DNA of 64,000 nt. Source: Eledone cirrhosa (Eukaryota). Shown one piece after another: positions 17,101 through 56,591 of this stretch (the first letter of the stretch is position 1; each line of letters starts with the position of its first letter). The stretch covers positions 94,178,001 through 94,242,000 of the forward strand of contig OZ024742.1 in the NCBI GenBank assembly GCA_964016885.1, given 5' to 3'. A model generated the notes under the pieces. That model did not search any database. It was not told the origin of the DNA and saw nothing but the letters and a program-made list of their open reading frames with translations. Position numbers and translations under genes: made by a program.

Positions 17101-17497
17101 ATCATCATCATCATCATCATCATCATTTTACGTCTGCTTTTTCCTGCTTGCAAGGGTGGGACGGGAACTGATTCTGGCTTGATTTCTACAGCTGGATGCT
17201 CTCCCTAACACCAACCTCATTTACAATGAGTGCTGGGTGCTTTTTTTTTGTGGCACCTACACGACCACTTTACAGTGTGGGCTGGGTGTTTTTTTGCTGT
17301 GGCACCTCCACGACCACTTTGTAGTGGAATGATAGGGACCCCAGTCCCTATCATCTCATTTCTACAGCTGAGTAAACTGGAGCAATGTGAAATAAAGTGT
17401 CTTGCTCAAGGAAACAACACATCATCCGGTCTGAGAATTGAACTCACAACCTTTCGATTGCAAGGCCAATGCTCTAACCACTAAGCCATGTACCTAC
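17101..17497 (-). mobile_element. SINE-B: tRNA-derived CORE-like SINE with (TGA)n tail and internal ~47-bp tandem units
   Basis: Head TGGCTTAGTGGTTAGAGC...GAGTTCAATTC, CORE-like CCTTGAGCAAGACACTT, (TGA)n tail; matches the copies at 21108-21550 and 56592-56895. Confidence 0.85.
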
Positions 17498-18248
17498 ATA
17501 TGTATGAATATGAGGCTGGGAGCATGCACATGCCTTAAGTATGTACATGTGTACAAGTGTATAACTATATGAGCAAGAATATATACACACATTTATGTAT
17601 GTATATATGTATTATGTGTGTCTGTATGGATATATATATGTATTATGCATGTGTCTCTGTATGGATATGTGTGTGTGCATTAGAGAATGTGTGTATGTAT
17701 ATAAATGTATGTTTGAATGTAAAGGCAAGGTTATACAAACAGCTGTATGTATCATTGTGAATATATGTGAATATAGATGCGTTTACACACACCTTTATGT
17801 ATGTTTGTAGGTGTGTATGTATGTATATACGTATGTATGTATATATGTATGTATGTATGTATGTTCTACTGGTTTTATGATTTTATCAGTTTTTACCAAG
17901 AGAGAGTTGGTTTCTAACATAGATACAATACTCTCTCATTGGAATTTATACAACATCAACTAGGTAGATATGTATGCATGTCTACATGCATACATGTGTG
18001 TGCAGGTATGGATGTTATTGTACATGTGGATATGGATGTTTTGAGTTATATGTGTGCATGTGCATATGTTTTGTATCCATACATGTGTACATGCAGTTAT
18101 TACATGCAGAATGTTTGGTATGTTTTACATATTTTTTACTGTTCCATTAATGGATTGTACTTGTAATTTCCTAACTAGTCATGTTCTTTCTGCTTCTGTA
18201 TGTATGTATTTATGCATCTATTATCTCTTTCTCTTAATTTCGAGTATA

Positions 18249-20985
18249 TTTTTTTGACCGGCCACCTTCCTGGTGGCAAGGTTGTAAAAGAAAAGAAATT
18301 GTCATCCCTTGAATTGCAAGAATGTTTTGCAAATTTTGAAGGTGCCAGCTATCGCAGCCATTTGTAGACTATGAATTAGGGAGCTGCGCTTTTTGTCCGC
18401 AAATCCAAGTTCAGTCATACTTTGGTCCAAGCGGGTTGGCATATAACCCGTAGCTCCAATAATGATGGGTATGAAGCTAAAGTGTATCTTGGATAATGGA
18501 TTTGTAAACTCCTCATCAATGGTCCGTAGATGTCCTCCTTCTCCTGTATTTTTCTGACAACGTTTACATCAAGTGGGCAGCTGATCTCCACAACAGAACA
18601 CATTTTCAATGTGTGGTCCCAAACAACAATATCAGGTCGGTTGTGCTTTAATTTGGTGGAAGTTTTTATTTTCAGGTTCCACCAGTATTCCTTAGTGCCA
18701 TCTGTCTCAATATATTCTTCCTCGTTTTCTGTTAATTTTGTTTTCCGAAGTGCGTTCCAGATGGATCTAGCTATCCCATCGTGTCTCATGGGGAGGTAGT
18801 AGCTAGATGACATTCTTTCACAACTGGTAACATTGTGGCTTTCATCCTCGATCTTTGTTTTACATAGCCTACATTTATTGTCAGCTGCTGGCCCTCCCTT
18901 TTCTGCAGCAGATATTTGGTAGGGAGTTCTTGTATTGCATAGAAATATTCCTCAAGGTGTGATGTCATAAACTTGTCGGAACTCCATGCCAGGCTCTTTG
19001 AGTGGTTTATCCCCTCTATGGTCTGTGTTTTACGTCTCAAGTATCCATGCACAACCTTTTCTGTAAATTGGTCAATTTTTTCATCTTGTTTGAACATTTA
19101 ATAGGATCTTCCGATTTCTCTGGGTGAGAGATTTATATCAGGCTTTATTCCATATCTCTCCTCCACATCAGTCGCTATTCTAATGATTATTTTTTTTTCA
19201 TGCTCATAAACCTGGGCACGATGGTTGCCAACCTTTTTCCTCTGTTGAAGATGTTACTTCAGTGTTACTATCCGGGTCTCATATGTTGTTAATATGGATT
19301 TTAGACCCCGGCCACCTTCCTTGCGTGAGAAGTATAGCCTATCCACATCACCATTGATCTTAAAGTTCCCAGTCACACTGAGAAGTTTGCGAGTTCTAAC
19401 ATCCATCTCACTTAGTTCTTGCAATGACCAGTTCAGCAGGCCAAATGTTGGCATTATAATTGGCACAGCATAAGTATTGTGGGCAATGTATTTGTTGTAC
19501 GCTGACAGTTCTGAAGGCCATATTTTCTTTACTCTTCTGAGGTATTCAGTTCTGGTTCTCTCCTTATTTATGGGTCCATCATATCTGACATTCTCATCCT
19601 GTCCAAGATATCTGTAGTTGTCACCTGACTGTAGAGGTTGTATTGTCAGGCCGTTCATCTCTAGATTTCTAGAAGAGGGCACAGCTTTTCCACGTTTTAC
19701 TGCCAAATATGCACACTTGGAGTCACCAAATTTCATTTTGATGTCTGTTGAAAATTGTGTAATGAGGTCCAATTGTTTCTTGATGTCATTGATGTTTGGC
19801 CCATACAACTTCAGGTCATCAACAAAGAAAAGATGGGAGATACTTCTGGACCCACTTCTTTGTCTTGTCTACCTTGTTTCCTGAGTAAGATAGTGGATTT
19901 AGTGAGAGAACGAAGAGTAGCACTGACAAGCTATCACCCTGAAAGATGCCCTTCTGGTAATGTATCTTATCAGTCTTAACTTGCTCCTTCTCACCTCTAA
20001 GGATCAAATTGGTGTACCAGTTCTTGCTCAGGCGTTCAACAGCAGCTACAAATGTTTGTGTGACTTTGGCTAACTGTAAAGCCTTAATAATCCACCCAGG
20101 AGGTACACTATCAAATGCTTTTTGATAGTCCAGCCACACCACAGTCATGTTTCTGCAATTCTTTGTTGTTTTTTCCTGAATCATTTTATTAGTTAGTAGG
20201 TGATCTATGCAACCCCACACCTCCCTCTTTCCACCAGCTTGCTCAGGTGTTATGATGTTGTTGGTAGCACAGTGATCCTGTAAGAACAGGTTAAGGCACC
20301 CAGTATATAATTTATATATGATGTTTTGGCAGGCTATTGGGCGGTATTTTTAGCAAGGGTGGTTTGGCTATTTTTGGGAATGAGGAGAGTAGTGGCAGTT
20401 GATAACCATCTGGGCAGTTCTTGTGTGCCTTTAATGGTTTCTGTAAACAGCCATATGAGATCTTGCCGATAGAAAGTGAAATTCTTCAACCAGTATCCTG
20501 TAATGAGGTCTGGGCCTGGTGATTTCCTATTCGACATTTTCTGTAGAGCTGTTTCCTGTATTGACCCATATATGTCATATTGTTTTGTCTGGACATGTTG
20601 GCAGTAGTCCTGTTCCAGTTCTTTTAGCCAATTAGTTTGTCTGTTGAAGCCGTCATCCGTTTCCCATGCAGATCTCCAGTAGCTCTCAACCTGTTCTTTT
20701 GAAGGGGTGTCATTTACAGGGATTGAGCTTTTGCCACCGAAGCTGCGTTAAACGGATTTAGGATCTCTGGCAAACAATCTATTTAGCACTTGTCGTTTAT
20801 GTGCTGTTAACTTATATTTTAGTCTTTCTGTTGTAGCTGTGAGTTGTTGTTTCAACTGGTGTAATTTGGAGTTCAAAGTTTTAAATTTTGTATCTCCAAA
20901 TCGTCTCTCTAACTTTTTTTTTAGGTCTTCCTGGTGTCGTGTGAAGTTGCTCTCTATGTAGCATTTCATAACGACTGCGATGTGT
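18249..20985 (-). mobile_element. Degenerate, 5'-truncated REL-endonuclease LINE (R4/Dong-related, second family) ending in poly(A)
   Basis: Frameshifted pieces 'KSPGPDLITGYWLK', 'WLDYQKAFDSVP', 'KGIFQGDSLS', 'YRYLG', 'EGGRGL', 'HNRPDIVVWD..VEISCP'. 3' hairpin GCCACC-AGGAA-GGTGGC then A7. Confidence 0.9.
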
Positions 20986-21107: not shown

Positions 21108-21550
21108 TCATCATCATCATCATCACCGTTTTACGTCTGTTCTTCCACGCTAGCATGGGTTAGATGGGTTGTCCTGTTGTGGGCAGTGTCCAGTCGGCTG
21201 ACCTTGTCTTGCTCATACGGGAACTGATTCTGACTTGATTTCTACAGCCGGATGCCCTTCCTAACACCAAACTCATTTACAGTGAGTGCTGGGTGCTTTT
21301 TTTCCGTGGCGCCTACACATCGATTTTACAGTGTGGGCTGGGTGCTTCCTTGCCGTGGCACCTCCACAACCACTTTGCAGTGGAATGATAGGGACCCCAG
21401 TCCTATCATCTCATTTCTACAGGTGAGTAAACTGGAGCAATGTGAAATAAAGTGTCTTGCTCAAGGAAACAACACATCAACCGGTTCAAGAATTGAACTC
21501 ACAACCTTTCGATTGCAAGCCCAATGCTCTAACCACTAAGCCATGTGCTT
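21108..21550 (-). mobile_element. SINE-B full-length copy
   Basis: Same head, CORE-like motif, internal tandem units and tail as 17101-17497. Confidence 0.85.
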
Positions 21551-21871
21551 ATGTGTGTGTGTGAATATTGCTAAAAATAACAGATGAATAGCTACAATAC
21601 CAATAACAACAATTACAACAACAATTCAATAATTCCACTAACAACAACAACCATATCAACTATGACAACTCCAACAACAACAACTATAACAGCAATAACA
21701 ACTAAAACTACAACAGCCATAGCAAATAGGACAACAGCTCCAACAATAACAACTATAACAGCCACAACAACTACAACAACCATATCAAATATGACAACAG
21801 CTCCAACAACAATAACAACAGTAACAACAACAACAGTGTTAACAGTAACAACAACCACCATTATAACAACT

Positions 21872-22059
21872 GGATTGGCAGTATCGGTAGAGGGTCGGAC
21901 GCCATGCTTTGGAGATACGGCCCATGGAGTTACGGCCCTTGCCATTCTGAGTTCAAATCACACCGAGGTTAACTTTGCTTTTCATCCTTATGGGGTCGAT
22001 AAAATAAAGTACCACTAATACACTGGGTATTTGCTGGCCTTGTGCCAAATGTAGAAACA
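21872..22059 (+). mobile_element. SINE-A with 12-bp TSD
   Basis: ATTATAACAACT at 21860-21871 and 22060-22071. Confidence 0.85.
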
Positions 22060-23045: not shown

Positions 23046-23789
23046 GGACAAGGATAACTTCCTATTAATTAATGGCTAGTATATCCCTCTGCCCATCAAT
23101 GGGAATACATACACACACACATAATACTCACACATGCACACACACATACACACACACATATATACATATGCAGACTCAAACACATATGTTATATACATAC
23201 ACACACATATACACATAGGTATACACAAACACACATTACATACATATACATTCAAGCAAACACATGTACATAAACATATATGCATGCATATATACACATA
23301 CAGACACAAACACACATACCACACATTACACATACACACACACACCATACACGAATACACATACACACACAGAGACACAAACACACATACCCTGCCATAC
23401 GCATGCACACACTCACCATAGATACTTACATAAATGTGTATACAAATACACATACATATTCAAACACACACATTTACCAGCTGCCTCTTAGATTTAGAAA
23501 TGAAGACATTTGAAAGCCGACAAAAAGATCAGATTAAATGAAATTACTTGTAAAACTTTTAAAATGTTCGAATTATAAAAATTAAAACATATATTAATAA
23601 ATACTGAAATATAAAACAATAAATTATAAAAAAAAGGATTTAAAAAAATGGCAATTAAATTAAGAAAGATAAGAAACAGTTAACAATTTTTCTTGGTATT
23701 TTTTACTAGAAGAGTAAGAAAGGCCAGCCTGAAATCAGTACTCAACACATTGAAGACACCATGATAAAATACTCTCTGTACACTTTGTA

Positions 23790-24945
23790 AAGTGACAGTG
23801 CTGGTGTCATAATAAAATGCACCCAGCACATTCTGTAAAGTGCTAGACCTGGTGTCATAATAAAATGCACCCAGTACCTTCTGTAAAGTGCTAGAGCTGG
23901 TGTCATAATAAAATGCACCCAGTACCTTCTGTAAAGTGCTAGAGCTGGTGTCATAATAAAATGCACCCAGTACCTTCTGTAAAGTGCTAGAGCTGGTGTC
24001 ATAATAAAATGCACCCAGCACATTCTGTAAAGTGCTACAGCTGGTGTCATAATAAAATGCACCCAGCACATTCTGTAAAGTGCTAGAGCTGGTGTCATGT
24101 TAAAATGCACCCAGCACATTCTGTAAAGTGCTAGACCTGGTGTTATAATAAAATGCACCCAGCACATTCTGTAAAGTGCTACAGCTGGTGTCATAATAAA
24201 ATGCACCCAGCACATTCTGTAAAGTGCTAGAGCTGGTGTCATGTTAAAATGCACTCAGCACATTCTGTAAAGTGCTACAGCTGGTGTCATAATAAAATGC
24301 ACCCAGCACATTCTGTAAAGTGCTAGAGCTGGTGTCATGTTAAAATGCACCCAGCACATTCTGTAAAGTGCTAGACCTGGTGTTATAATAAAATGCACCC
24401 AGCACATTCTGTAAAGTGCTAGACCTGGTGTCATAATAAAATGCACCCAGCACATTCTGTAAAGTGCTAGACCTGGTGTCATGTTAAAATGCACCCAGTA
24501 CCTTCTGTAAAGTGCTAGACCTGGTGTTATAATAAAATGCACCCAGCACATTCTGTAAAGTGCTAGAGCTGGTATCATAATAAAATGCACCCAGTACATT
24601 CTGTAAAGTGCTAGAGCTGGTGTCATAATAAAATGCACCCAGCACATTCTGTAAACTGCTAGACCTGGTGTCATAATAAAATACACCCAGCACATTCTGT
24701 AAAGTGCTAGACCTGGTGTCATGTTAAAATGCACCCAGTACCTTCTGTAAAGTGCTAGACCTGGTGTCATAATAAAATGCATCCAGTACCTTCTGTAAAG
24801 TGCTAGAGCTGGTGTCATAATAAAATGCACCCAGCACATTCTGTAAAGTGCTAGAGCTGGTGTCATAATAAAATGTATCCAGCACATTCTGTAAAGTGCT
24901 AGACCTGATGTTATAATAAAATACACACAGAACAATCTGTAAAGT
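23790..24945. repeat. 48-bp tandem array, ~24 copies
   Basis: Unit GCTGGTGTCATAATAAAATGCACCCAGCACATTCTGTAAAGTGCTAGA; 16-aa periodicity in the ORF track. Confidence 0.95.
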
Positions 24946-26305
24946 GGTTGGCATATACTGACTCTAACTGTAGAAATCATGCCAAAATATGGAATGTATG
25001 AGCAAGATGTGGTCTATCTGACCTACTTAGACTCTGACCATCAGAACCTGTATAACCCTTGAAAACATGGAAAGGGGACAGAGAATAATGATGATGATGA
25101 CAATGATGATTTAACTTTTCTAGAGACTCCATTGTTTCTTCCTAACCCAGAGTTGATCACAGTGTTAGTATTATTGTAATGGACCTCAGTTACTTTTAAC
25201 AATGGCTGTTTCAGTTTTTCAATCAACAGAACATGTTCATGACAATAACATATAAGTGGTTGACAATTCCACAGACCCATGTAACCTTAACATAATTCAC
25301 AAGGAAATTCAACTTAACATAATTCACAAGGAAATTCAACTTAACATAATGTGTGACAAGGTTGACCATTTGAATTACAGATACAGTCTATCCAATGGGC
25401 TTCTAAATAGTTTCTGTCTATCAAATTTCACCCACATATAATGGGTCATCACCATTACCATCATCGGTTTTACGTCTGTTTTTCCATGCTTGCTGGGCTG
25501 GACAGGTCCATTTCAACCCAGCATCTCTCCATACGCTGTGTTCCTACATCATCTTCTATGTCAGTCCTACCAATTTGAGATCAGTTCTCACCATCTCCAC
25601 CCATGTCTTCTTTGGTCTAACTCTACTACAGGTTCCTTCCACTGGGATTTCCTGGCACTTCTTCAGCATGTTAAAATAAATGACATGCTGGTGAATTGAA
25701 CCTGGGACCTAATACGTAATTATAAAGCACACTCCTTAACAATTTGTCCATGCTGTGGTCATATTTATTTAATACATATGTAAAATAAATATCCCTGTGG
25801 CCAACTATGGGTTAGTGAGAAATATTCTTTGTAAGTGTTGAATAATATTAATAAAATACAGGAAGCAGTTAATAATATATTTGACAAAAAAGTGAACGTA
25901 CTTCTCATGAATTGTTGATTAAACGGTGTCTTTAGCAGGGAAAAAGGGTAGAAAAACTTATATATATATACATATGTATTTGTGTGTGTCTCTGAGTGTA
26001 CATGTATATACGTAAAATGATGATGATGATATATCAAAATCGTTGCATTATGTCAAACAGAATTTTGTGTTGTATGGAGTATGCATGTATGTTTGTATAT
26101 ATGTAAATAGATGTGTGTGTGTGTGTGTGTGTATCGATATAGATATCAAATGCATGTGTACATGTGTGTGTGTGTGTGTGTGTGTGTGCATATATAAACA
26201 TTGACACGCACACACATAATTCTGTACGTATTTATCTATCATCAATATCTAGAAATGTATAATTATGTTGCTGTTTGTATGCTCACTCATAGGCATATGA
26301 TGATG

Positions 26306-27816: not shown

Positions 27817-27853
<37 letters not shown>

Positions 27854-27855
<2 letters not shown>

Positions 27856-28682
27856 TTTCTTTATTAACCACAAGGGTTTACATAAAGTAGACATTAAGGA
27901 CAGTGCAGGACAATGCAGGACGGTACAAATGGGCATTTCTGCATGTAAAAAACAAAAACAGAGGATGTAACAAAAAAATAACAATGAAAATAACAATGAA
28001 AAATTCCCCAATAGGGGGGAGACTTCGGAGGGACATTTGTGGAGAAAGCCCAGTAAAAAGCCACAATGACCTGACCACCAAGGCAAGTGCCCTCTCCCAG
28101 TTTTCCACCTTTAATTTACAGATATATACTCAGAGTAGGCCCATTCACTCGGGCCATTCTTGCTTCTCTCACCCATCTTTCAACAAAATGCTGGGAAGAG
28201 AGCACTTCCCTCTCTACTCTGATTTTCCTTTTCAAATGAAATTTGCACACCTGTTTCGTCGCTGTCGTCGTCGTCGTGGAGAAACCTTGCACGCTTTGCA
28301 CGAGACTTTTCTTTTCTTTCGTCACTTGCGAAAGAGAAGGGAGGGAGAGAGACACATTTAAAGAAGGGAGGGAGAGAGACAATCTTCTCTCTGCTGTAGT
28401 GATGATTGAGGAAGAAGAAAACGGAATGAGTGGGAGTGACGTATGAAATTTCTTTTTCGTAGCCATGTTGTTTTTTTGTTTAAAATGAAATTTTGGGTAC
28501 AAAACCCCAATAACTGGTTATTTAACCCCGAAGGGCCAAATAACGGACAGAAAGACCCCTCTCACGAGGAGGAGGGTGTCTTTATCAACAATTTGGTTCA
28601 AGTTTTAAACAATTTACAATTGTTTTAACGGTTAAAAATTACTATACCTTACAGAGCCGAGCCTCCGTCAACCATGGCATTC
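27854..28682 (-). mobile_element. Bipartite non-autonomous Tx1 derivative (5' end joined to 3' end) in (AAT)n
   Basis: 27854-28245 matches Tx1 28716-29095 and 28246-28682 matches Tx1 34010-34450; (AAT)n on both sides. Confidence 0.9.
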
Positions 28683-28717
<35 letters not shown>

Positions 28718-28965
28718 TTTCTTTATTAACCACAAGGGTTTACATAAAGTAGACATTAAGGACAGTGCAGGACAATATAGGACGGTACAAATGGGCATTT
28801 CTGCGTGTAAAAAACAAAAACAGAGGATGTAACAAAAAATAACAATGAAAAATTCCCCAATAGGGGGGAGACTTCCGAGGGACATTTGTGGAGAAAGCCC
28901 AGTAAAAAGCCACAGTGACCCTGACCACCAAGGCAAGTGCCCTCTCCCAGTTTTCCACCTTTAAT

Positions 28966-31900
28966 TTACAGATACGTACTCAGAGTAGGCCCATTCACTC
29001 GGGCCATTATTGCTTCTCTCACCCATCTTTCAACAAAGTGCTGGGAAGAGGGCACTTCCCTCTCTACCCTGATTTTCCTTTTCAAATGAAATTTGAAAAA
29101 GTTAATCAGGGCTTCACCGAAGAGGTAAGTGCTCGACTTCAGCCCTTTCAACCGTGTCCACCATACTATCTCTTTCGCCATGGCCACCAGACAGATAAAA
29201 ACTGCCTGCCCTTCCCGGCTAAAGGAAGAGGGCGGGGCAATCCTCACGATGTACCCAGCTGATAGCCGGATCCGTCCTACACGCGACAGCAGGTGTTCGA
29301 CATAAACCCACAAGTCAGCAATTTTCGGACACTGGACGAGTGCCTGCAGGACGGTTTCGTCGCCCTGCGCGCATCACGGACATGCCTGGCTGACGGCACC
29401 TCCATGCCTGTAGAGTTTATCCCGAACTGGCAAGGCTCCTCGGTAGCACTGCCGGGCCAGAGATTTCTGGAAGTTGTCCATAGGTCACGGCCCGAAAGTT
29501 CTTCCGAAGAGATTGGCTAGTTGATTTTCGTCGACGCCTAGAATTTCCCCAAGTACGTCGTCGCTCTTCCCGTCCACTAATCCTCTATAGAACGCCTAGG
29601 TGGAGTTTCAACCGATCACATTGCCCGATTGGTCGAGGGCTGTGAGCGCCTGAAGACATTCCAGTCTCCAGGCGCTCCCTCTTGGTCTTCGCTTGACCCA
29701 GGACTGCAGCTCCGTCAAGGAAACGAGCTGGGGAAATACGTGTCTAGCAAACGGCGACCACACCTGATCACCGTCGAGGAAGAGGTGGAGATGTCGTAGC
29801 CTGAGCGCGTGTCTGCGCATCATCAGCCACGCCAAGCCCAGCCCTCCACGTAGCGGGTGTTGACAGCAGATGGACCGCCTGACCATCGGAGCGCGTCCCT
29901 TCCACAAAAAGCGAAAGAGCAAACGCTCCAGCGCAGTCAGGCGGGGCTTAGGACAAGGTACGACGGTCAGGCGGTAGCAGATGACAGACGCGATGTACGC
30001 GTTAGCCACCTCCGCTCGACATTTCGGGGATAGCTTCCTCTCCGCCCATTTCTGGGTGAGAGAAGCCACCCTGATCGTCACCTCGTCCCAGTTTTTGTCC
30101 GTCTGGAGGTCCGGACCGAACCAGACCCCTAGCAATTTAACCGCACCGTCCGTCCAGCGTCCGACGACGCTGTTGGACGGCATGGACCTGCCTCTCCAGG
30201 TGCCGAGCTGCAGGCCCACTGACTTTTCCTGGTTGATCATTGTTCCTGTCACCGCTTCGTATTCCCTTAGTGTAGTGCCGATCGCCTCGACGTGTTTGGC
30301 GTTCAACACCACTACGGTGATATAGTCCGCATATACTGACACGGATCTTCCGCATCCTAGTTCGTGCGGGACGCCCCTCAACGTCTCCAGTTTGTGCAGT
30401 AATGGCTCGAGAGTCAATACGTACAAGAGGGACGAGAGGGGATATCCTTGGCGGACCGAGCGCATGATGTTGAACGGTTCCGACAGGTGACCGTTCACTC
30501 TCACCACAGAGCAGATGTCGCTGTGCATGGCAGCGATCCAGCCTCTGAGGACGGGCCGAAAGCCAGCCGCCCTCAGGACTGCCGCTAGGTAACGATGGTC
30601 GACCCTATCGAAAGCTTTCGACTGATCTAAATTGATCAAGGACCCACCGGTGCCAGGTTTCCTAGCTACCCTCTCTACGATGTATCACATGAGGTGGAGG
30701 TTGTCGTGGATGGATCTGTCGGGAATGGCGCATGTCTGCGCCTCTCCCACCAGACCACCAACGACAAGCGCCAACCTCTTTGCTAGCACCTTGGCCAAAA
30801 TCTTGAACTCTATGTTTAGCAGAGTTATGGGCCTGAAATTATCTATGTTATCCCCCTTGTTCGGATCCTTTCTCAGCAGTGCCACCGCTCCTCGGCTCAC
30901 AGATCTGGGAATTCTCCCGTTCTGTTGCGAGTTGCAGTAGACGTCCGCCAAGAGGCCTCCGAACAAGTCTGGCATCTGTACGTAAAGTTCATAGGGTAGA
31001 CCATCCAAACCAGGCGATTTACCCCTTGTGCAGCTAGTCATTGCCTCCCGTACTTCAGCGGCTGTTATCGGCTTTACGCAAAACTCCGCCTCAGTGGCCG
31101 AGAGCCGCGGCAGTCCGTCGAGGTAGACACAAAAGTCCATCCCTCGACCCGGCCCACTGCTGCCCCCGAACAGCTGAGCGAAGTGTCGCTGAAAAGCTTC
31201 ACATATTTGCCCGGGATCGACCAGCATGCGCCCGTCGTGGTCAACCAAAGACCGGATCGTGGCTTTGTTGCCACGGCGCACCTCCGACACTCGGGCCCAT
31301 TGAACGGCTTTCGTCCCCTCGTGTCTGAGAGCACGCAACTTAGCTCTGACAACGCAGCCTTCATGCTTTGCATTGAAGAATTGGTCAAGGGCCAATTTCG
31401 CCGCAAGTACGTCGGTCGCGATGCCTTTGCTAAGCGCCTCGTCTAATTTTCTAACTAATTCTCCCTCTATTCTATTTTTCTCTATTGCTAAAGCCTTACT
31501 AAACCTAATGGACTCTATTCTAATTGCTCTTTTCAGAGCAAACCACCACTTGTTGCTGACGATGGCCCCCGTCAACGCCCGCTTAACTAGCTCGCTAATC
31601 CGGTCTCTGTATGCCTTGCGCGCTGGTAAGGACGCGTTCAGCTTCCAGTAGCCGGGTCCTCGTCTATGAAGCCTATCTAAGTCAAGCACACAGATCACGA
31701 ATTTGTGGTCCGTGTAGCTGACTATCTTGAATTGTGGACAGCCTATGCTAGACCTATCTATTTCCCTACAAAATACTCTATCTAGATATGATCTGGATGA
31801 CCCTATGCGATTTGTCCAAGTCCACATTGGCACATTCGGGAAATCCAATCGGTACCTGTCAGACAGTTCGTAGCCGCCGAAGATCGGTGCGAAGGCCCGT

Positions 31901-32034
31901 GCTTGGGAGATTCTGGTCTCGCTGATGGCCACTATATCTATGTTTAGTGACCTGAGGTCGTTGATCAGGTGACCCTGCTTTCATGACGACCCCAAGCCAC
32001 GCGCATTTATGCTGGCTATTCTGAGTGAGGTCAT
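28966..32034 (-). pseudogene. Tx1 ORF2 (APE-RT-CCHC), disrupted
   Basis: 'MTSLRIASINARGL', 'ISET', 'SYLDRVF', 'YTDH', 'GYWKLN', 'KSPGLDGLP', 'NFRPITLLN', 'LDQSKAFDRVDH', 'VRQG.PLS', and YADY in place of YADD; early stop and frameshifts. Confidence 0.9.
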
Positions 32035-32141
32035 GTTTAAAATAGAGTGGAAAAGATGGGAAAGACCACTTACCGTACTTTTCGTAGAGGAAGGATGGTT
32101 TCTCCATCCCTTTTCACTTGATCGTCTGTTGAAGGGACCGT

Positions 32142-34235
32142 TCAATCGTCCCTTCGGCTGGTCGTCGGCTCTTCTATGAGTATGTCCGAATATACTCTCC
32201 GGTTAAGAGTCCCTCCTAGGTCTCTAAAATCACCAACTGCGTTGGGGAATTTCGTTTTAATGTTTGTGTATTGTTTCTGTGCTATTTTTAGCAGTCTTAT
32301 GTTAGTTGGCGTTTTGATTGGTGCTGGTATTATGTAGTCGTGCTGTGAAATGTCTGTGTGTTCAATTATGTAAGTCATTAGTTTCTTGTTGTGTGTATTT
32401 ATTGCCGTGCATTTGTTTGTCTGGGGGTGGGGTGTGGTTCTGCTATTTTCTTGTTGTTGCTGGGTGTGTGTGTTTTGTTGTTGTGTTTGCGATGTTGGTG
32501 CTTGTGGTGGTGGTGTTGAAGGTGTTGTTGTTGTTGGCGGTGGGGTTTTCGCCGGTGGTGATGGTGGTACTAGTGTGGGTGGTGATGGTGTTGGTGGTGT
32601 TGCTACTGTGAGTCTCTTTGCAGTAGCCTTTACCCTTTTTTCATTTCTTTCCTCCCCTTTCGAAGGCGACGATGCGCTGCTTCTGCGTTTGTGCCTTCTT
32701 ACGACGTTTTGCCATCCCTCTCCCACCTCACACTCCATGTCTGATTCTGTGAGGTCGGGGAGGGGTACCAGCTCCACTCTTTCACTTGTTGTTGTTGGTG
32801 ATGTTTGCAGCGGAGTCTCTGTTGCAGCTGCATTTGGTATTACTGTTGTTGTTGTTAATACTTCCACTGCTGCTGCTGTTCTTGATTTCGGTGGCGTGGG
32901 TATGGGTGCCACGGACCTATCGTTCCTGGTTGCCGCTTGTCCTGTTGCTGGTAGCCGTGGAGCCGGTTTCGGAAGGAAGGGGGTTTTCTCCTTTCTCAGG
33001 GTTTCTCGTTGCAGAAGGCCCTGAGGTGAGTCTTCGATCCACAACGAAAACATTTCGAGCGTTTGCCCTCAACACTTATGGGCAGTTGAGTGCCGTAATC
33101 GAAGTCTATCACATCCGGGATAGCTTTGATGCACTCCTGGTTGATTTTGATTAACATCTCAATGGAGGTGCCGACCCAATCTTCTCTTATTCTTTTCTGT
33201 ACTTGCAGTACAGTTGTTTTGTCCTCGATTCCTACGAGAACAGACGCGGCCAGCCAAGAAGGGGCCATCTCGGGGAGGGGAGGGGGGGGGAGGACGTGGG
33301 TCAGTTTGACCCTCTCAATTTTTTGCCCGCAGTAGGAGGGCACCAACACCATTTCCTCGCTCCTTAGGGTCACTAAGGATTGAGCCTTTGCCTCCTGGGG
33401 TGTGGCAAAAAGCACGTCTACGGTGGCATATTTCTTGCCTCGGGTGATGTGCGTTTTCCGCTGCCACACAGACCCTTAGGCTTTTTGTATTTGAGCCTCT
33501 GTGGCTCTTTCAACCCTACGGGATTTTGTGCTTACTGTACGGTTCGTGACCGTACAGTGCTGTTGGGTTTCGAAAAATTTTTCGGCTGCCTTGCAGATTG
33601 CTCGGTGTCCGGTTTTCGTCGCCATCTTCTTCGCTTCCTCTAATTCCTTATTTGTTATGAGGATGGTTTTCAGGTTCTTTGCGATACCTGCAAACGAGAT
33701 GGGTTTTTCTTTGCTGCTGTTGTTGTTGTTGTTGTTGTTGTCGTCAGAGCTGCTGTTACTTTTGTTGTTGCTGCAGGTACTACGACAACTGCCGCCACCG
33801 CTGTTGCTGTGGTTGTTGTTGTTGTTGTTGCTGCTGCTGCTGTTGTTGTTGCTGTTGCTGCTAATGCTGTTGTTGTTTATGCTGCTGCTGATGCTGTTGC
33901 GGCTGCTACTGTTGTTTTCCTTGTCACAGTTGCTGCTGCTGCTGTTATTACGGCTGCTACTGCTATTATTCATGACGTCAGACGAATGAAATGGGTTTTT
34001 GTATTTTCCGCACACCTCTTTCGTCGTTGTCGTCGTCCTCGTGGAGAAATCTTGCACGCTTTGCACGAGACTTTTCTATTCTGTCGTCACTTGCGAACGA
34101 GAATGCGGGGGGGGGGGGAGACACATTTAAAGAAGGGAGGGAGAGAGACAATCTTCTCTCTGCTGTAGTGATGATTGAGGAAGAAGAAGACGGAATGAGT
34201 GGGAGTAACCTATGAAAATTCTTTTTCGTAGCCAG
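32142..34235 (-). pseudogene. Tx1 ORF1 (gag-like, zinc knuckle), disrupted
   Basis: Pieces 33476..34066, 32996..33469 ('CFRCGSKTHLRAFC') and 32142..33053. The likely start is CTG at 34235 here but ATG at 28466 in the derivative. Confidence 0.75.
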
Positions 34236-34468
34236 TTTTTTTTTTGTTTAAAATAAATATTGGGCACAAAACCCCCAATAAGCGGTTATTTAACCCCGAA
34301 GGGCCAAATAACGGACAGAAAGACCCCTCTCACGAGGAGGAGGGTGTTTTTGTCTACAATTTGGTTAACGTTTTAAACAATTTACAATTGTTATAGGGGT
34401 CAAAATTTACAATATCTTACAGAGCCGAGCCTCCGTCAACCATAGCATTCAATAATAATAATAATAAC

Positions 34469-34504
<36 letters not shown>

Positions 34505-34539
34505 CTAAATAATAATAATAATAATAAAAAACTAAAACT

Positions 34540-37500
34540 AAGTCAGACATTCGAACACTACATTACAATGAAACTTATGCTTATTCATCTCTGGGGCCCT
34601 TTCTGCCTGTGTGTTTGTTTGTTTATGTGTGTTCGTATACAGCGTGGTGATAATGCCACACAAGGGCCAAGTGGAATGGCGGATCCACAGATGGCTATGT
34701 AAACATACATTCGCCAATCCTCGATAAGAGTGTTTAAATATCGAACATAAACAGTTCGAATAACGGTGAAATGGAGACTAGAACGTCATGTGACAGACTC
34801 TCACCCAACAGGTGCCCCCTGGCTCAGCAGCAGGAACCTGACTGTCAACCAAATACTGCTGATGTTGGAGGAAGGAGAAGAAGGAAAGGGGCCAGAACCA
34901 ACTGGACGAAAGAATTGAATAGAACTGTTATGCAATGCTACCTGAAAAGTAACCCCAAGGAGAGGGGCTACAGGAGACGGATGCATAACATCTGGAACGA
35001 GATTGGTTTATTTAAATTAGATGAACAAAAATTGGCCGGGCAGGCTCGGGTAATAAGAACTAATGGGTGGATAAGCGAGCTGGAACTGGAGGAACTGAGC
35101 AGAGAGAATGGCTTGGAGATGGCGGGTGTAGTATGCCAGACAAGCGAGCCGGTGGGAAATGAAGGTGAGGAGGTCCTGAGAACGGAGGAACCACCCGAAG
35201 CAGACAATGATCTGAGTACTGAGATAAATAATACCTGGAACAGAGATACGGCCACTGAGGAGATGAATGCTGACGGGCTAGGACAAGATTCGGTTGACAT
35301 CCTAAATTTAGTGGTAGATGAATTGAACAATGATAGTGGGAGACCTATGAACCTAAGATTTGTAGACAGGAAAAAGTTAAAAGAAACAACAGCTAAGGTA
35401 AACAAAGTCATCCCATACCTTGAGGCGAGGAGCCTTCACCAGTGCAACAATATCCTCAGAGCAACAGCAAATACGGTGAGGAAACTACTTGGTATAAAAG
35501 CGAGAGGAAACAACAGACAAGAAAGAGCAGAGCCGTGGTGGAAGAAGCGACTGAGTGGGCAAATCGGGGAAATGAGAAATGACATAGGAAAGCTTGAGTC
35601 ACTACTGAATGGGACACTAAAAAACATAGGCACTAAAAATAGACTGGAAATAAAATACAAAACTAGGAGTAAAAAGCTAAATATTATCATAGAGGAATTG
35701 AAGCAACGCATTGTAGCAAAGAGTGCAAAAATCAGGCGATACGAGAACAGAGTCAGTCAGTATAAACAGAACCGCATGTTCGACAACAACCAGAAGATGC
35801 TGTTTGGACAGCTTGAGGGCAAGGAAAGAGGCAACGACTTGATCCCTGGGGCGGAGCAAACTAAAACATTCTGGAGAGGAATATGGGAGCAGGATGTTAG
35901 ACACAATGCCCAGGCAGGGTGGATTGAGACAGTACAGAGGGAGATTGGTGAGCAGGCACAGCAACAGACTGATTTGAGTATCACAGTTGAAACTCTTAAG
36001 GGGCAAGCCAAAAAACTAACCAACTGGAAATCACCAGGCCCAGATGGTGTGCAGGGGTATTGGATTAAACATCTAACATCCCTCCACCCGAAGCTGACGG
36101 CCATGTTCAATGACTGCTTGGTGTCGGGTGAGGTGCCAGAGTGGTTGACAAAAGGTACCACAGTTCTGATAATGAAAGACCGAATCAAGGGTAATGATGC
36201 TACCAACTATAGACCTATCACATGTCTGCCCGTAATGTGGAAACTGTTGACGAGCATTGTGTCTGAGGAAATCTACCATCACCTCCACACAAACAACTTG
36301 TTACCGGACGAACAGAAAGGATGCCGAAAGAAGTCACGTGGTACAAAGGACCAGTTGCTTATTGATAAGATGGTAATGGGGAATTGCAGGAGGAGACACA
36401 CTGATCTTGCCATGGGATGGATAGACTACAGAAAGGCATTTGACATGGTGCCTCATTCCTGGATCACCAAAAGCCTGGAGATCTTCAGGGTGGCAGATAA
36501 CATCAGACAGTTGCTAGGCAGGAGTATGGGGTCCTGGGAGACAGAGTTGACATCAACTGGAGTATCCTTGGGAAGCGTGAAGATCAAGAGAGGTATCTTC
36601 CAGGGAGATAGCCTGTCCCCTCTGCTGTTTGTCCTTGCCCAGATGCCCTTGACCATTATGCTGCGAAAAGTGAGAGCAGGATACAAGTTGGGAAGGGGAG
36701 AGCTTACCATCAATCACCTCCTCTTCATGGACGATCTTAAGCTCTTCGGGAAAAGTGAGAAGGAGTTGGATGTGCTTGTTGACACTGTCCGTATTTTCAG
36801 CAGTGATATATGTATGCAGTTTGGTATTGGTAAATGTGGAGTCATTGTGATGAAGAGGGGTAGGTTGAGCAGAAGTAACGGGATCCAGATACCAACAGGT
36901 GAGATGATAAAGGAAATTGACTCTGAGGAAGGATACAAGTATTTGGGCGTTCTGGAGGCTGATGGCATAAAGAACAAAAAAAAGAAGGAATTGTTAAGAA
37001 CTGAATACATTCGGAGAGTAAGGAGCGTATTGAAGTCACATCTGAACAGCAGAAATGCCATAAGCGCAGTAAATTCCCGAGCTGTGTCTATTATTAGGTA
37101 CAGTGCGGGAATTCTGAGATGGAATGTTGCTGAACAGAAAGAAATGGATAGGAAGACTAGGAAGCTATTGACTATCTACAACATGTTCCACAAGAGGAGT
37201 GATGTCGATAGACTCTACCTAAGGAGATCTGAGGGTGGAAGAGGTCTTATCAGCATAGAGGACTGTGTTCAGATGGAGAAAAACAACCTATACAAATACG
37301 TGACCTATAGTAAGGAGTCAATGCTCAGAGCTGTACTGAAGGAGGGGACAGTAGGCCAGGGGATGTCCAGGGAGGAAATAACATCAAGGAGGAAGAGCAG
37401 CCTTAAGGGAAAACCCCTTCATAGTACCTTCTTTGAGAAAACTGAATTTAGAGATCCACAGACATGGAACTGGTTGAGAAGAGGAGACCTCAAAAAGGCT

Positions 37501-38237
37501 ACAGAAGGAATGCTAATGGCTGCGCAGGAGCAGGCCCTCAAAACGAAGTGGTTGAAGCACCATATCTACAAGGAGGAGGCCAGCCCACTGTGCAGGATCT
37601 GTGGAGAGAGAGAGGAGACTGTGGCTCACATTGTGTCCGAGTGTAAACACCTAGCCCAAACCCACTATAAGGGCTGGAGACACGATGTGATGGGCAGGGT
37701 GATCCACTGGCACCTGTGCAAAGTAAACAATCTACCACATTCTGAGAAATGGTATGAGCATAGGCCAGAGGCGGTGATGGAGAACAATCAGGTGAAGGTG
37801 CTGTGGAATTTTAGGATACAGACGGACAAAAAACTGGAACACAATAGACCTGACCTGGTGGTTGTGGACAAAGAAAAAAGATCGTGCCTGATTGTGGATG
37901 TGGCCTGCCCGTTCGACACGAGAGTGCAAGAGAAGGAGAGGGAGAAAATTAACCGATACCAGGACCTAAAGTGGGAGGTGAAAAGGATTTGGAACTGCCA
38001 TGAAGTCAAAGTGATCCCGATTGTCATAGGTGCACTGGGGACTATCTCCAAAAGTTTCCAGGGATGGTTAAAGAAAATCGGCCCCTTCACGCTTTTTGGA
38101 ACGCTTCAAAAGGCATGCTTGCTTGGAACAGCAAGAACCCTCCGATACGTCCTGAATATCTGAGGCTGCAGGTAGTGGCTTGATATTCAATCCAACGGAC
38201 TTTCCAGTTAACCAACATCAATGACTGAGATTCAAGG
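34540..38237 (+). mobile_element. Apparently full-length R4/Dong-clade LINE in (AAT)n
   Basis: Single long ORF with short UTRs, (AAT)n on both sides. Dong elements are known to target TAA repeats. Confidence 0.92.
34771..38163 (+). CDS. Intact 1130-aa retrotransposon protein: RT, CCHC knuckle, restriction-like endonuclease
   Basis: 'WKSPGPDG', 'NYRPITCLP', 'WIDYRKAFD', 'GIFQGDSLSPLLF', 'LFMDDLK', 'YKYLG', 'CRICGEREETVAHIVSEC', 'RPDLVVVD..VDVACP..EK..RY'. Confidence 0.95.
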   Translation: METRTSCDRLSPNRCPLAQQQEPDCQPNTADVGGRRRRKGARTNWTKELNRTVMQCYLKSNPKERGYRRRMHNIWNEIGLFKLDEQKLAGQARVIRTNGWISELELEELSRENGLEMAGVVCQTSEPVGNEGEEVLRTEEPPEADNDLSTEINNTWNRDTATEEMNADGLGQDSVDILNLVVDELNNDSGRPMNLRFVDRKKLKETTAKVNKVIPYLEARSLHQCNNILRATANTVRKLLGIKARGNNRQERAEPWWKKRLSGQIGEMRNDIGKLESLLNGTLKNIGTKNRLEIKYKTRSKKLNIIIEELKQRIVAKSAKIRRYENRVSQYKQNRMFDNNQKMLFGQLEGKERGNDLIPGAEQTKTFWRGIWEQDVRHNAQAGWIETVQREIGEQAQQQTDLSITVETLKGQAKKLTNWKSPGPDGVQGYWIKHLTSLHPKLTAMFNDCLVSGEVPEWLTKGTTVLIMKDRIKGNDATNYRPITCLPVMWKLLTSIVSEEIYHHLHTNNLLPDEQKGCRKKSRGTKDQLLIDKMVMGNCRRRHTDLAMGWIDYRKAFDMVPHSWITKSLEIFRVADNIRQLLGRSMGSWETELTSTGVSLGSVKIKRGIFQGDSLSPLLFVLAQMPLTIMLRKVRAGYKLGRGELTINHLLFMDDLKLFGKSEKELDVLVDTVRIFSSDICMQFGIGKCGVIVMKRGRLSRSNGIQIPTGEMIKEIDSEEGYKYLGVLEADGIKNKKKKELLRTEYIRRVRSVLKSHLNSRNAISAVNSRAVSIIRYSAGILRWNVAEQKEMDRKTRKLLTIYNMFHKRSDVDRLYLRRSEGGRGLISIEDCVQMEKNNLYKYVTYSKESMLRAVLKEGTVGQGMSREEITSRRKSSLKGKPLHSTFFEKTEFRDPQTWNWLRRGDLKKATEGMLMAAQEQALKTKWLKHHIYKEEASPLCRICGEREETVAHIVSECKHLAQTHYKGWRHDVMGRVIHWHLCKVNNLPHSEKWYEHRPEAVMENNQVKVLWNFRIQTDKKLEHNRPDLVVVDKEKRSCLIVDVACPFDTRVQEKEREKINRYQDLKWEVKRIWNCHEVKVIPIVIGALGTISKSFQGWLKKIGPFTLFGTLQKACLLGTARTLRYVLNI

Positions 38238-38273
38238 AATAACAATAACAATAATAATAACAATAATAATAAT

Positions 38274-39950
38274 GTTTTCTTTATTAACCACAAAAGTTTA
38301 CATAAAGTAGACATTAAGGACAGTACAGGACAATACAGGACGGTACAAATGGGCATTTCTGCGTGTACAAAACAAAAACAGAGGATGTAACAAAAAAATA
38401 ACAATGAAAAATTACCCAATAAAGGGGAGATTTCGGAGGGACATTTGTGGAGAAAGCCTATTAAAAGGCCACAGTGACCCTGACCACCAGGGCTAGTGCC
38501 CTCTCCCAGTTTTCCACCTTCAATTTACAGGCACATACTCAAGTAGGCCCATTTACACAGGCCATTCTTGCATCTCTCACCCATCTTTCAACTAAATACT
38601 GGGAAGAGAGCACTTCCCTCGCTTTCCTGATTTTCCTTTTTAAATGAAACTTGAAAAAGTTAATCAGGGCATCCCCGAAGAGGTAAATGCTCGTCTTCAG
38701 CTCTTTCAAATGAGTCCACCATACTATCTCTTTCGCCATGGCAACCAGACAGATAACAATTGCCTGCCCTTCCCGGTTAAAGGAAGAGGGCGGGGCAATC
38801 CTCACGATGGACTCAGCTGACAGCTGGATCCGTCCTACACGTGACAGCAGGTGTTCGACATAAACCCACAAGCCAGCAATGCTCGCACACTGGACGAGTG
38901 CGTGCAGGATGGTTTGGTCGCCCTGCACGCATCTCGGACATGCCCGGCTGACGATACCTCCATACCTGTAGAGTTTATCCCAAACTGGCAAGGCTCCTCG
39001 GTAGCACTGCCAGGCCAGAGATTTCTGGAAGTTGTTCATAGGCCCCATTCTGAAGAGATTGGCTAGTTGATTTTCGTTGACGCCTAGAGTTTCACCAAGT
39101 ACGTCTTCGGTCTTCCCCTCCACTTATCCTCGATAGAACGCCAAGGTGGAATCTCCACCGATCACATTGCCCAATTGGGTCAAGGGCTGTGAGCGCCTGA
39201 AGGCTTTCCAGTCTCCAAGCGCTCCCTCTCGGTCTTTGCTTGACCCAGGACTGCAGCTCCGTCAAGGAAACGAGCTGGGGAAAGACGCATCTAGTAAACG
39301 GCGACCACACCTGATCACCGTCGAGGAAGAGGTTCAGATGTCATAGCCTGAGTGCATGTCTGTGCATCATCAGCCACGGCATGCCAAGCCCTTCACATAG
39401 CGGGTGTTGACAGCAGATGGACCGCCTGACCATCGGAGCGCATCCCTTCCACAAAAAGCGAAAGAGCAAACGCTCCAGCGCAATCAGGCGAAGCTTAGGA
39501 CAAGGCACGATGGTCAGGCGGTAGTAGATGACAGATATGATGTATGCATTAGCCACCTCCGCTCGACTTTTCAGGGATAGCTTCCTCTCCTCCCATTTCT
39601 GGGTGAGAGAAGCCACCCTGCTCGTCACCTCGTCCCAGTTTTTTTCTGTCTGGACGTCCGGACTGAACCAGACCCTTAGCAATTTAACCAGTCCGTTCCT
39701 CCAGCGTCCGACGATGCTGTTGTTCGGCATGGACCTGCCTCGTCAGGTGCCGAGCTGCAGGCCCACCGACTTTTCCTGGTTGATCATTGCTCCTGTCACC
39801 GCTTCATATTCTCTTAGTGTAGTGCCGATCACCTCGATGTGTTTGGCTTTTGACACCACTACGGTGACATCGTCCGCATATACTGACACGGATATTCCGC
39901 ATCCTAGTTCACACGGGACCCCCCTCAACGTCTCCAGTTTGTGCAGTAAT
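38274..39950 (-). mobile_element. 5'-truncated Tx1 copy
   Basis: Colinear with 28716-30403; 'VYADDVT' and 'CPRC..HALVQC'; (AAT)n on both sides. Confidence 0.92.
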
Positions 39951-39997
39951 AATAATAATAATAATAATGATGATAATAACAATAATGATAATAATAA

Positions 39998-41827
39998 TTA
40001 TTGATAAGATGGTAATGAGGAATTGCAAGAGGAGGCACACTGGTCTTGCCATGGGATGGATAGATTACAAAAAGGCATTCGATATGGTACCCCATTCTTG
40101 GATAACCAAAATCCTAGAGATCTTCAAGGTGGCAGATAACATCAGACAGTTGTTGAGCAAAAGTATGAAGTCCTGGGAAACAGAGTTAACATCAGCTGGA
40201 GAATCCTTGGGTGCGTGAAGATCAAGAGAGGTATCTTCCAGGGAGATAGTTTGTCCCCTCTGCTGTTTGTCCTTGCCCTAATACCCCTGACCGTTATATT
40301 GCGAAAACTGACAGCAGGATACAAGTTGGGAAAAGGAGAGCTTACCATCAACCACCTCCTCTTCATGGACGATATTAAACTGTTTGGGAAGAGTGAGAAG
40401 GAGTTGGATGTACTTGTTGACACTGTCCGTATTTTCAGCAATGATATATGTATGCAGTTTGGTATTGGTAAGTGTGGAGTCATTGTGATGAGGAGGGGTA
40501 GGTTGAGCAGAAGTAACGGAATCCAGGTACCAACAGGTGAGATGATAAAGGAAATTGACATTGAGGAGGGATACAAATATTTAGGTATTCTGGAGGCAGA
40601 TGACATCAAGAACAAAAAAATGAAGGAATTTATAAGATCTGAGTACATAAGGAGAGTAAGGGGTGTATTAAAATCACATCTAAATGCAGTGAATTCCCAA
40701 GATGTGTCTATTATTAGGTACAGGGAATTCTGAAATGGAATGTTCCTGAACAAAAAGAAATGTAGACTAGGAAGCTATTGACTATCTACAACATGTTCCA
40801 CAAGAGGAGGGATGTCGATCGACTCTACTTACAGAGATCTGAAGATGGAAGAGGTCTTATCAGCATAGAGGACTGTGTTCAGATGGAGAAAAACAACCTG
40901 CACAAATACATGACGGACAGAAGGGAGCCAATGCTCAAAATTGTAATGAAGGAGAAGACAATCGACCAGGAAGAAATAACAACAAGGAGGAAGAGCAAAA
41001 AAATCCCTTCATAGTATCTTCTTTAGGAAAACTGAATTTAGAGATCCACAGACATGGAACTGGATAAAAAGAGGAGACCTTAAAAAAGCTACAGAAGGAA
41101 TGCTAATGGCTGCGCACGAGCAAGCCCCCAGAATGAAGTGGGTGAAACACCATATGTACAAGGAGGAGGCTAGCTCACTGTGTAGGATCTGTGGAGAGAG
41201 AGAGGAAACCATGGCTCACATTGTATCCGAGTGTAAACACCTGGCCCAGACTCACTATAAAGATTGGAGACATGATGTGATGGGCAGGGTGATCCACTGG
41301 CACCTATTCAAAGTAAACAATTTACCACATTCTGAGAAGTGGTATGAGCATAAGCCAGAGTCGGTGATAGAAAACGATCAGGTGAAGGTGCTATGGGATT
41401 TTAGGATACAGACGGACAAGAAATTAGAACTCAATAATCCTGACCTGGTGGTTTTGGACAAGGAAAAAAGATTGTGTCTGATTGTAGATGTAGCCTTCCC
41501 ATTTGACACAAGAGTGCAAGAAAAGGTGAGGGAGAAAATTAACCGATACCAGGACTTAAAGTGGGAGTTAAAAAGGATTTGGAACTGCCATGAAATCAAG
41601 CTTGTCCCGATTGTCATAGGCGCACTAGGTACTATCTCAAAGAGTTTCCAAGGATGGTTAAAGAAGATTAGTCCAGCCCCGCTTTTTGGAACACTTCAAA
41701 AGGCATGCTTGCTGGGACCACAAGAACCCTCCGATACGTCCTGACTATCTTAGGCTGCAGGTAGCAGCTTGATATTCATTTCAACAAACTTTCCAGTTAA
41801 GTACCATCAATGACTGAGACTCAAAGA
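39998..41827 (+). mobile_element. 5'-truncated, frameshifted R4/Dong copy
   Basis: Colinear with ~36359-38237; (AAT)n on both sides. Confidence 0.92.
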
Positions 41828-41849
41828 ACAATAATGATAATAATAATAA

Positions 41850-43619: not shown

Positions 43620-43732
43620 CAGTGCTACTGATAATAATGTTCAGCTGTGTGAACTGGAGCAGTGTGAAAAGAAGTGCCTTGTTCTATGGCATAACATATC
43701 TGGGAATCAAAACCATGGCCTTATGATTATGA

Positions 43733-56556: not shown

Positions 56557-56590
<34 letters not shown>

Positions 56591-56591
56591 T

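Follow-up and report, generated by a model that had tools for sequence, protein, structure and literature searches.

The window, i.e., the whole stretch of 64 kb analysed, is repeat-rich animal DNA with 38% GC and numerous microsatellites. A single AAT/ATT array at positions 27820-41857 holds five LINE copies, and copies of a SINE family, here termed SINE-A, are found on both strands (Table 1). The Tx1-type LINE with both ends kept is dead, as its ORF2, of the order APE-RT-zinc knuckle, contains stops and has lost about 105 aa of the APE domain; ORF1 is fragmented and carries a CCHC knuckle, which we take to fit Tx1. The domain set of a Tx1-type element was found, comprising two ORFs, APE, RT, a C-terminal zinc knuckle and an RT of the L1 group. 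Among the 78 matches to the LINE protein, 76 bear no element name and the best named one is 'Transposon TX1 uncharacterized 149 kDa protein', while a homologue (P0001, 73% identical to the LINE) aligns with L1 ORF2p structures at 1e-50 versus 1e-24 for R2. A quick RT tree (82 rows) places the LINE on the 'Transposon TX1' side with an SH-aLRT of only 86 and, as almost no named references are among these rows, does not separate Tx1 from the L1 clade. As used here, 'Tx1-type' denotes an element of the L1 group and may cover either of these two clades, undivided by the tree.

Table 1. Coordinates of the LINE, SINE and target-site features in the 64-kb window
Feature	Positions	Strand	Remarks
SINE-A	1307-1399	plus	5'-truncated, 15-bp TSD
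SINE-A	9563-9691	minus	5'-truncated, newly found 10-bp TSD beginning ATTAT
SINE-A, long subtype	10922-11123	minus	newly found degenerate TSD, 14/16 match
Three-copy SINE-A chain	11631-12229	plus	middle copy 11854-12040 with 10-bp TSD inside the ATT tail of the first copy
SINE-A, most diverged with 3' end	16672-16844	minus	predicted two-stem hairpin as in Tx1, other stem letters, 9/9 pairs
SINE-A	21871-22059	plus	12-bp TSD
Mini-Tx1	27854-28682	minus	829 bp, ORF-less fusion of LINE 5' and 3' parts
(ATT)11 tract	28683-28715	minus	separates Tx1 3' end from mini-Tx1 5' end
Tx1 3' end	28737-28716	minus	followed by (ATT)11
Tx1 3' two-stem hairpin (predicted)	28716-28748	minus	loop CUUGU, 4-bp upper stem, bulge, 6-bp lower stem
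L1/Tx1-type LINE	28716-34450	minus	5.7 kb, both ends kept, broken
R4/Dong-like LINE	34537-38237	plus	RT and restriction-like nuclease, AAT tail, 5' boundary estimated
Truncated Tx1 copy	38274-39946	minus	5' part missing, 91% identity, tail-to-tail with R4-type LINE
Truncated copy of R4-type LINE	40008-41826	plus	
Second Tx1-like family, 3' fragment	42233-42310	minus	upper stem the same, loop different, final nt absent
Tandem SINE-A pair	42339-42732	minus	42339-42527 with 16-bp TSD inside the tail of the other copy
SINE-A, short subtype	43434-43620	minus	full length 187 bp, A and B boxes, 18-bp TSD
Empty paralogous target site	53365-53380	minus	begins ATTAT, preceded by C
SINE-A, short subtype	53648-53834	plus	16-bp TSD, filled site
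SINE-A, long subtype	59356-59573	minus	17-bp TSD

Within the array, the APE-type Tx1 and the restriction-nuclease LINE are opposite in orientation and their tails meet at 38237/38274; the SINE-A chain and an older R4-like remnant likewise stand tail-to-tail at about 12229/12240. The label R4/Dong-like is our assumption from the motifs of the element. Its frame is uninterrupted over 1141 aa (34738-38163, plus strand), close relatives reach up to 68% identity, and this copy is possibly recently active. A broken, more distant restriction-nuclease LINE at 18250-20950 (minus strand) is 31-42% identical to the first and has another 3' end. Old remnants, presumably of RTE type by their motifs, lie at 282-1080 (minus), 1415-1530 (plus), 2745-3030 (minus), 16270-16520 (minus) and 62850-63620 (plus), and the two 3' ends that can be read terminate with GAA repeats. 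The LINE mix of the window (RTE, Dong-R4 and L1-Tx1) resembles that given for Octopus vulgaris (PMC13282606; all papers with PMC identifiers are represented here by excerpts).

SINE-A copies and their insertion sites

SINE-A occupies 21 loci in 64 kb, 16 of them with the 3' end kept, and comes in two subtypes, one short (187 bp) and one long (about 218 bp, i.e., about 30 nt more). A and B boxes at a spacing of about 63 nt are present in all four copies scanned; short, non-coding and interspersed, with these boxes and with TSDs, the family has the makeup of a SINE2. Judged by the boxes, SINE-A is probably a tRNA-headed SINE; ARAGORN found no tRNA gene in the window, and the best 150 of 194 Rfam rows hold no tRNA and just microsatellite-driven miRNA matches. 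It presumably resembles the abundant tRNA-derived octopus SINEs OK, OR1 and OR2, reportedly described by Ohshima and Okada in 1994. Identity among copies is 86-98% in the short subtype, 66-86% in the long one and 91% for the Tx1 pair; the divergence ranges of Tx1 (this one pair) and the short subtype overlap, and the long-subtype copies look older than the Tx1 family of the window.

Body words of SINE-A are absent from the available supplements of PMC5786205, PMC13282606 and PMC4758252 (four of five files of the last). The SINE heptamer occurs in the first of these only inside two Sepioth SINEs, never at their ends, and the first of four parts of the PMC4824008 supplement, compared by eye, contains nothing resembling SINE-A. 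Full-text literature matching of four SINE-A words returned a single, unrelated preprint. Contig collections without eukaryotic DNA gave 31 stretches for the LINE protein, none of them confirmed, and no hit for the SINE motif or among plasmids.

TSDs were recovered for nine of the 16 copies with a 3' end, i.e., the five cited in the original prediction, each present on both flanks of its SINE and beginning with ATTAT as claimed, and four new ones (9563, 10923, 11854 and 42339); the Tx1, SINE-end and TSD strings quoted there all occur in the window. Lengths range from 10 to 18 bp (median 16) and exceed 15 bp in five of nine. The 3' copy starts with ATTAT at offset 0, directly at the SINE end, in all nine (background of ATTAT in the window, 0.31% of positions), and the 5' copy of the SINE at about 10922 reads ATTGT. 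The base at -1 is a pyrimidine (C or T) in 9/9 cases, with a background of 0.61-0.68 and P of about 0.01-0.03; two of the nine TSDs are insertions into older SINE tails and hence non-independent, and at the independent sites the count is 7/7. The pyrimidine places the bottom-strand nick at 5'-ATAAT/R, i.e., between T and a purine, as is known of L1-type nucleases (TT/AAAA; PMC13295347).

For one insertion, the unoccupied state can be compared. Positions 53380-53365 hold just once the 16-mer that flanks the SINE at 53648-53834 on both sides, in agreement with the claim that ATTAT is present in the empty site near 53370. Empty and filled sites are provided by a duplicated non-coding repeat (53197-53611, 54020-54400 and 57830-58454) with TA-rich palindromic parts, a candidate MITE- or Helitron-like element.

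The Tn-TA signature of RTE, in which a run of T precedes the TSD by about 10 nt, is found at none of the nine SINE-A sites (background 53/398), as against 108 of 123 for a reptile Bov-B (PMC13295347). TSD lengths sit better in the range of L1 (7-18 bp) than in that of RTE (7-15 bp; PMC6007223). As a clean discriminator between the two, however, TSD length was dropped, since an RTE-mobilised hagfish SINE has TSDs of about 17 bp (PMC7245038) and the lengths are therefore compatible with RTE. SINE-A sites contain lone or short ATT motifs in seven of nine cases, versus a long (ATT)n cluster for the Tx1 copies, all three of which lie within (ATT)n, yet in one cluster only. The match of the TSD to (ATT)n stops after 5-8 nt at eight of nine SINE-A sites.

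The 3' end common to SINE-A and Tx1

Tail sharing between SINEs and LINEs is a standard rule. The Tx1 end and the commonest SINE-A end are identical at 15 of the terminal 22 nt and align without gaps, as originally claimed; copy by copy, 13 of 14 SINE-A ends share 13-16 of the 22 positions with Tx1, the 14th having an extra A. Anchored at both termini, 15/22 identities have P=3.5e-5 from base composition, with the length of 22 chosen post hoc. A profile was built from 14 SINE-A ends, leaving out copy 22132 for its additional A and copy 12066 for its degraded end (the latter is also outside the pairwise identity and ATT-continuation counts). On this profile, the Tx1 terminus ranks first among 120,545 non-SINE positions (22 nt, both strands), the match standing exactly in register with the start of the ATT tail. 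Its rank is 4-23 for other lengths between 18 and 40 nt and 203-1029 for 10-15 nt, and the third, diverged Tx1 copy ranks 16th. Upstream of the heptamer, the identity ends (15-21/40).

As a check on the proposed partner, a LINE with a better-matching 3' end had been suggested as counter-evidence, and the window contains none. The Tx1 end scores +13.6 on the SINE profile, whereas seven other LINE ends, i.e., three R4-type, one other restriction-nuclease LINE and three RTE remnants, with anchors placed by eye and a slip of +/-6 nt permitted, score between -11.7 and -17.7 (-9.6 to -17.7 when the second SINE family is included). For RTE in particular, no shared 3' end was found in the window, the three remnants scoring -12 to -18. 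The common stretch is of the kind found in stringent-type partner pairs, albeit shorter than usual. Tail repeat and polarity are the same as well, with ATT continuing after 15 of 15 SINE-A ends (in one after 3 extra nt) and after all three Tx1 ends, whereas AAT or AAC follows in the two young copies of R4 type.

The shared tail probably forms the same small RNA hairpin in both elements. In Tx1, the predicted structure ends 5 nt ahead of the ATT tail, and the segment 28716-28748 contains the shared 22 nt as well as AATAAA. Bases identical between Tx1 and SINE-A are the 5-nt loop, the C-G closing pair, an A in the bulge and the AAA that stands unpaired ahead of the tail; five of the seven mismatches are located in the stems, the upper one being AACC/GGUU in Tx1 versus UGGC/GCC(A/U) in SINE-A. 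RNAalifold recovered the hairpin unprompted from 3 Tx1 and 13 SINE ends. Hairpin cells are paired in 85% compared with 28-62% in slid controls, and both sides are changed in three of four pairs. For each pair, the covariation represents a single event separating two lineages, and a shuffle count of 1/500 can for this reason not be read as a probability; the empirical joint chance of both stems is about 0.0012, calculated post hoc.

All three Tx1 copies have a fully paired lower stem, and the diverged one ending at 38274 retains the hairpin with U-G as closing pair. Tx1 and the SINE at 16672 have an identical two-stem minimum-energy fold, with P=0.0012 and 0.0003, respectively, against random 5' arms. 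Among the SINEs, 4-7 of 9 lower-stem pairs form in 12 of 14 copies, and the stem lacks significance both in the youngest of the copies tested (P=0.18) and in a long-subtype copy (P=0.48). Also against the hairpin, its probability in whole-length folds falls to P<0.05 in 8 of 11 copies; in the consensus fold at full length, the tail pairs with upstream sequence instead (though only 1/24 pairs covary), and among six SINE 50-mers, all with non-significant z-scores, one folds into the complete hairpin. Loop and closing pair are kept among SINE-A copies just 66-75% alike. As far as these predictions go, Tx1 and the oldest SINE copy form a solid hairpin and young copies a weak one. The hairpin provides good evidence of a common origin of the Tx1 and SINE ends and moderate evidence of a present-day function.

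Probable mobilisation of SINE-A by a Tx1-type lineage

Given the common 22-base tail, the probable hairpin and the ATT sites, SINE-A is probably copied by Tx1-type enzymes. We assign a probability of about 0.7 to the reading that the Tx1-type lineage of the window, either this family or a close or older relative, mobilises SINE-A by providing reverse transcriptase and endonuclease. This core of the original prediction is supported by the best match, the compensatory stems, the ATT polarity and the absence of Tn-TA. It is likewise rather likely that an ATT-tailed L1/Tx1-type LINE donated its 3' end to SINE-A as the last 22-33 nt, or that these imitate it. Instead of the exact Tx1 family in the window, a relative or an older one may be the partner; the families represented by the fragment at 42233-42310 and by an old Tx1-like remnant at about 3160-3740 (62% identical) could have been donors, especially for the older long subtype. 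Downstream of that remnant, a long hairpin at 3950-4030 (plus strand) has an AACC/GG core as in the Tx1 end, a possible tie to the remnant depending on a weak alignment.

The observations, i.e., the common end with its register and polarity, the position of the nick, the lengths of the TSDs and the empty site, would be connected as follows. Pol III would read the SINE through its end into flanking AUU repeats, as suggested by the A and B boxes. ORF2p would then bind the 3' hairpin with its (C/U)UUGU loop closed by C-G and its variable stems, a step suggested by the covariation to which we give roughly even odds. The APE would nick the bottom strand at 5'-ATAAT/R, a position taken from the TSDs with the nuclease presumed to set the motif, and the freed 3' end would anneal to the first AUUAU past the hairpin, where the cDNA would begin. 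Priming on this first AUUAU would account for the lack of any extra tail between SINE end and TSD in 9/9 cases. A second nick 10-18 nt off would yield TSDs of the observed lengths and, since insertions would regenerate ATT targets, SINE chains and the LINE cluster could arise. Whether the hairpin is required, given mobilisation by Tx1-type enzymes, is evenly balanced.

Tentatively, though as a possibility to be taken seriously, Tx1 might mobilise the SINE with ATTAT resulting from primer annealing after loosely AT-preferring nicks and with a dispensable hairpin; this alternative concerns the mechanism and leaves the partner as it is. In other LINE/SINE families, the start of the TSD follows the element's own tail repeat via RNA-DNA primer annealing (PMC6007223), and as such tail-target pairing alone yields tail-repeat TSD starts, ATTAT backs the AUU tail more than a specific nuclease. 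The early end of the (ATT)n match and the poor folding of the hairpin in young SINEs fit this alternative. The base at -1, however, lies outside the primer duplex and is still a pyrimidine at all sites, the phase is ATT throughout, and loop and closing pair persist even in diverged copies. The pyrimidine is the only feature that points to a nuclease preference. The single ATTAT-specific endonuclease postulated for the system goes beyond these data, as annealing also predicts ATTAT starts and Tx1 and SINE sites differ.

Less probable is an unseen LINE (CR1, L2 or an ATT-tailed RTE) as the current partner, with the Tx1 likeness being a relic of an older partner or a convergence of ATT-tailed hairpins. 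This is unlikely, but gains from the 64-kb span of the comparison, a window without a CR1 or L2 end, and from the weak hairpin of the youngest SINE-A copies. Moreover, 13 RTE and 13 CR1 families have been recently active in octopus genomes (PMC13282606, Table 1), and mollusc SINEs swap tails among several LINE clades (PMC11481361, PMC4824008). The exact terminal register and the first rank among 120,545 positions would, however, then need an explanation, and the RTE ends of the window are GAA-tailed and dissimilar to the SINE, with Tn-TA lacking at its sites. Long TSDs such as those of SINE-A are not known to be typical of CR1 and L2.

A coincidence in AT-rich sequence is very improbable, for although the length of the match was picked afterwards and A or T make up half of the identities, the Tx1 terminus ranks 1-23 of about 120,000 over lengths of 18-40 nt in exact register, and the complementarity of the stems adds independent evidence. 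The R4/Dong-like LINE, which targets the same AAT/ATT arrays and has its 1141-aa frame open, was rejected as a partner that is barely conceivable, because SINE and Tx1 read ATT and the R4-type elements AAT or AAC on their own strand and because its 3' ends are dissimilar (about -16 on the SINE profile, 7-9/22 identity).

Mini-Tx1 and known SINE-LINE systems

Mini-Tx1 joins a 5' part of 436 nt (28247-28682) to a 3' part of 393 nt (27854-28246), with a coding core of about 4.9 kb deleted, and its 3' end (27875-27854) is identical to that of Tx1. Compared with its neighbour, the 5' half shows 32/435 differences (7.4%) and the 3' half 11/379 (2.9%; Fisher p=0.005), so a tandem duplicate that simply underwent deletion where it stands is a poor fit, and this unequal divergence hints at a separate history. 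With one copy of mini-Tx1 in the window, a three-member system of Tx1, mini-Tx1 and SINE-A, as originally envisaged, goes beyond the data. A one-off internal deletion or template jump, implying no third mobile family, is slightly favoured by this single occurrence in 64 kb next to a full copy and by a junction with 1-nt microhomology, against which stand the unequally diverged halves and the retention of both termini plus an ATT tail of its own. For mini-Tx1 as a mobile family, the chance is somewhat short of even. It is doubtful that an L1-group (Tx1) lineage with stringent hairpin recognition and an (ATT)n-directed endonuclease drives both the tRNA-SINE and a bipartite derivative while sharing the microsatellite with an opposite-oriented restriction-nuclease LINE. 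Sources of ORF-less bipartite LINEs named in the excerpt of Kojima (2018, PMC5786205) are RTE, Ingi, Vingi and R2 only; if the reading holds, Tx1 would join these four clades.

The probable partnership of SINE-A and Tx1 is of a well-known kind, although the partner is an uncommon one, and represents no new element class. The crocodilian SINEU/Tx1-Mar system (Kojima, 2015, PMC4494074) is similar in its Tx1-clade machinery, shared target preference and tandem TSD insertions, but has snRNA heads, poly(A) tails and a Mariner target, in contrast to the tRNA-type head and the ATT tail and target of SINE-A. For SINEU-1, no LINE with a similar 3' end is given in the excerpt of that paper, whereas SINE-A has the terminal 22 nt and the hairpin in common with Tx1. 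Pairs of the stringent type in the L1 group are ZmSINE2/3 with LINE1-1_ZM (maize/sorghum) and SINEX-3 with L1-1_CR (Chlamydomonas), which like SINE-A combine a conserved loop and 3' flank with a variable, compensated stem (Ohshima, 2013, PMC3747384). These plant and algal pairs share about 50-80 nt and have poly(A) or T tails, in contrast to the 22 nt and ATT of the animal SINE-A. Eel UnaL2/UnaSINE1 and the CR1- or L2-tailed SINEs of bivalves resemble SINE-A in having a 3' stem-loop and a microsatellite tail (PMC3747384, PMC4824008), but belong to the L2 and CR1 clades, the homology in bivalves extending over 35-61 bp (PMC11481361). The eel pair was demonstrated experimentally (PMC3747384). 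Location in microsatellites is shared by the Tx1 of the window with Kibi, Koshi and crocodilian microsatellite-specific Tx1 elements; (TC)n, (TTC)n, (TTCC)n and (TTTC)n, but not (ATT)n, are among the Tx1 targets described in the excerpts, where TAA repeats are listed as a Dong target (PMC3812793, PMC4494074).

In the literature searched, as far as excerpted, crocodilian SINEU is the sole case of a Tx1-SINE link, through target preference and with no common end, and no animal Tx1-type LINE with a tail- and hairpin-sharing SINE was found, Repbase, Dfam and SINEBase aside. The excerpted pair table of Ohshima (2013, PMC3747384) lists neither a Tx1 partner nor a mollusc, and L1-group tail sharing is documented there mainly in plants and algae. 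Likewise, no Tx1 partner is named in the excerpts of octopus and mollusc repeat papers (PMC13282606, PMC8967140, PMC4758252, PMC11481361, PMC4824008), including the one that attributes 11.6% of the O. vulgaris genome to SINEs, with the partner LINE left unnamed in its excerpt (PMC13282606). The pair is apparently unreported, although Repbase, Dfam, SINEBase, Ohshima and Okada (1994) and Albertin (2015) may hold it. If true, it would be the first tail-sharing Tx1-SINE pair and allow a direct test of stringent recognition as ancestral in the L1 group. An ancestral stringent 3' recognition in the L1 clade was left open by Ohshima (2013, PMC3747384), in whose excerpt Tx1 stands beside the F lineage of vertebrates; the question becomes testable in an animal element through a hairpin of 33 nt for which compensatory variants exist in nature.

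A second tRNA-type SINE family is represented at 17110-17511, 21217-21568 and 56578-56896, with an (ATG)n tail and without a match to the Tx1 end. It carries what we take to be a CORE-like motif. Tandem arrays lie at 48322-50459 (2.1 kb), 23786-24946 (1.2 kb) and 60722-61387 (0.7 kb), and the unit of the 1.2-kb array resembles an internal stretch of this second SINE family.
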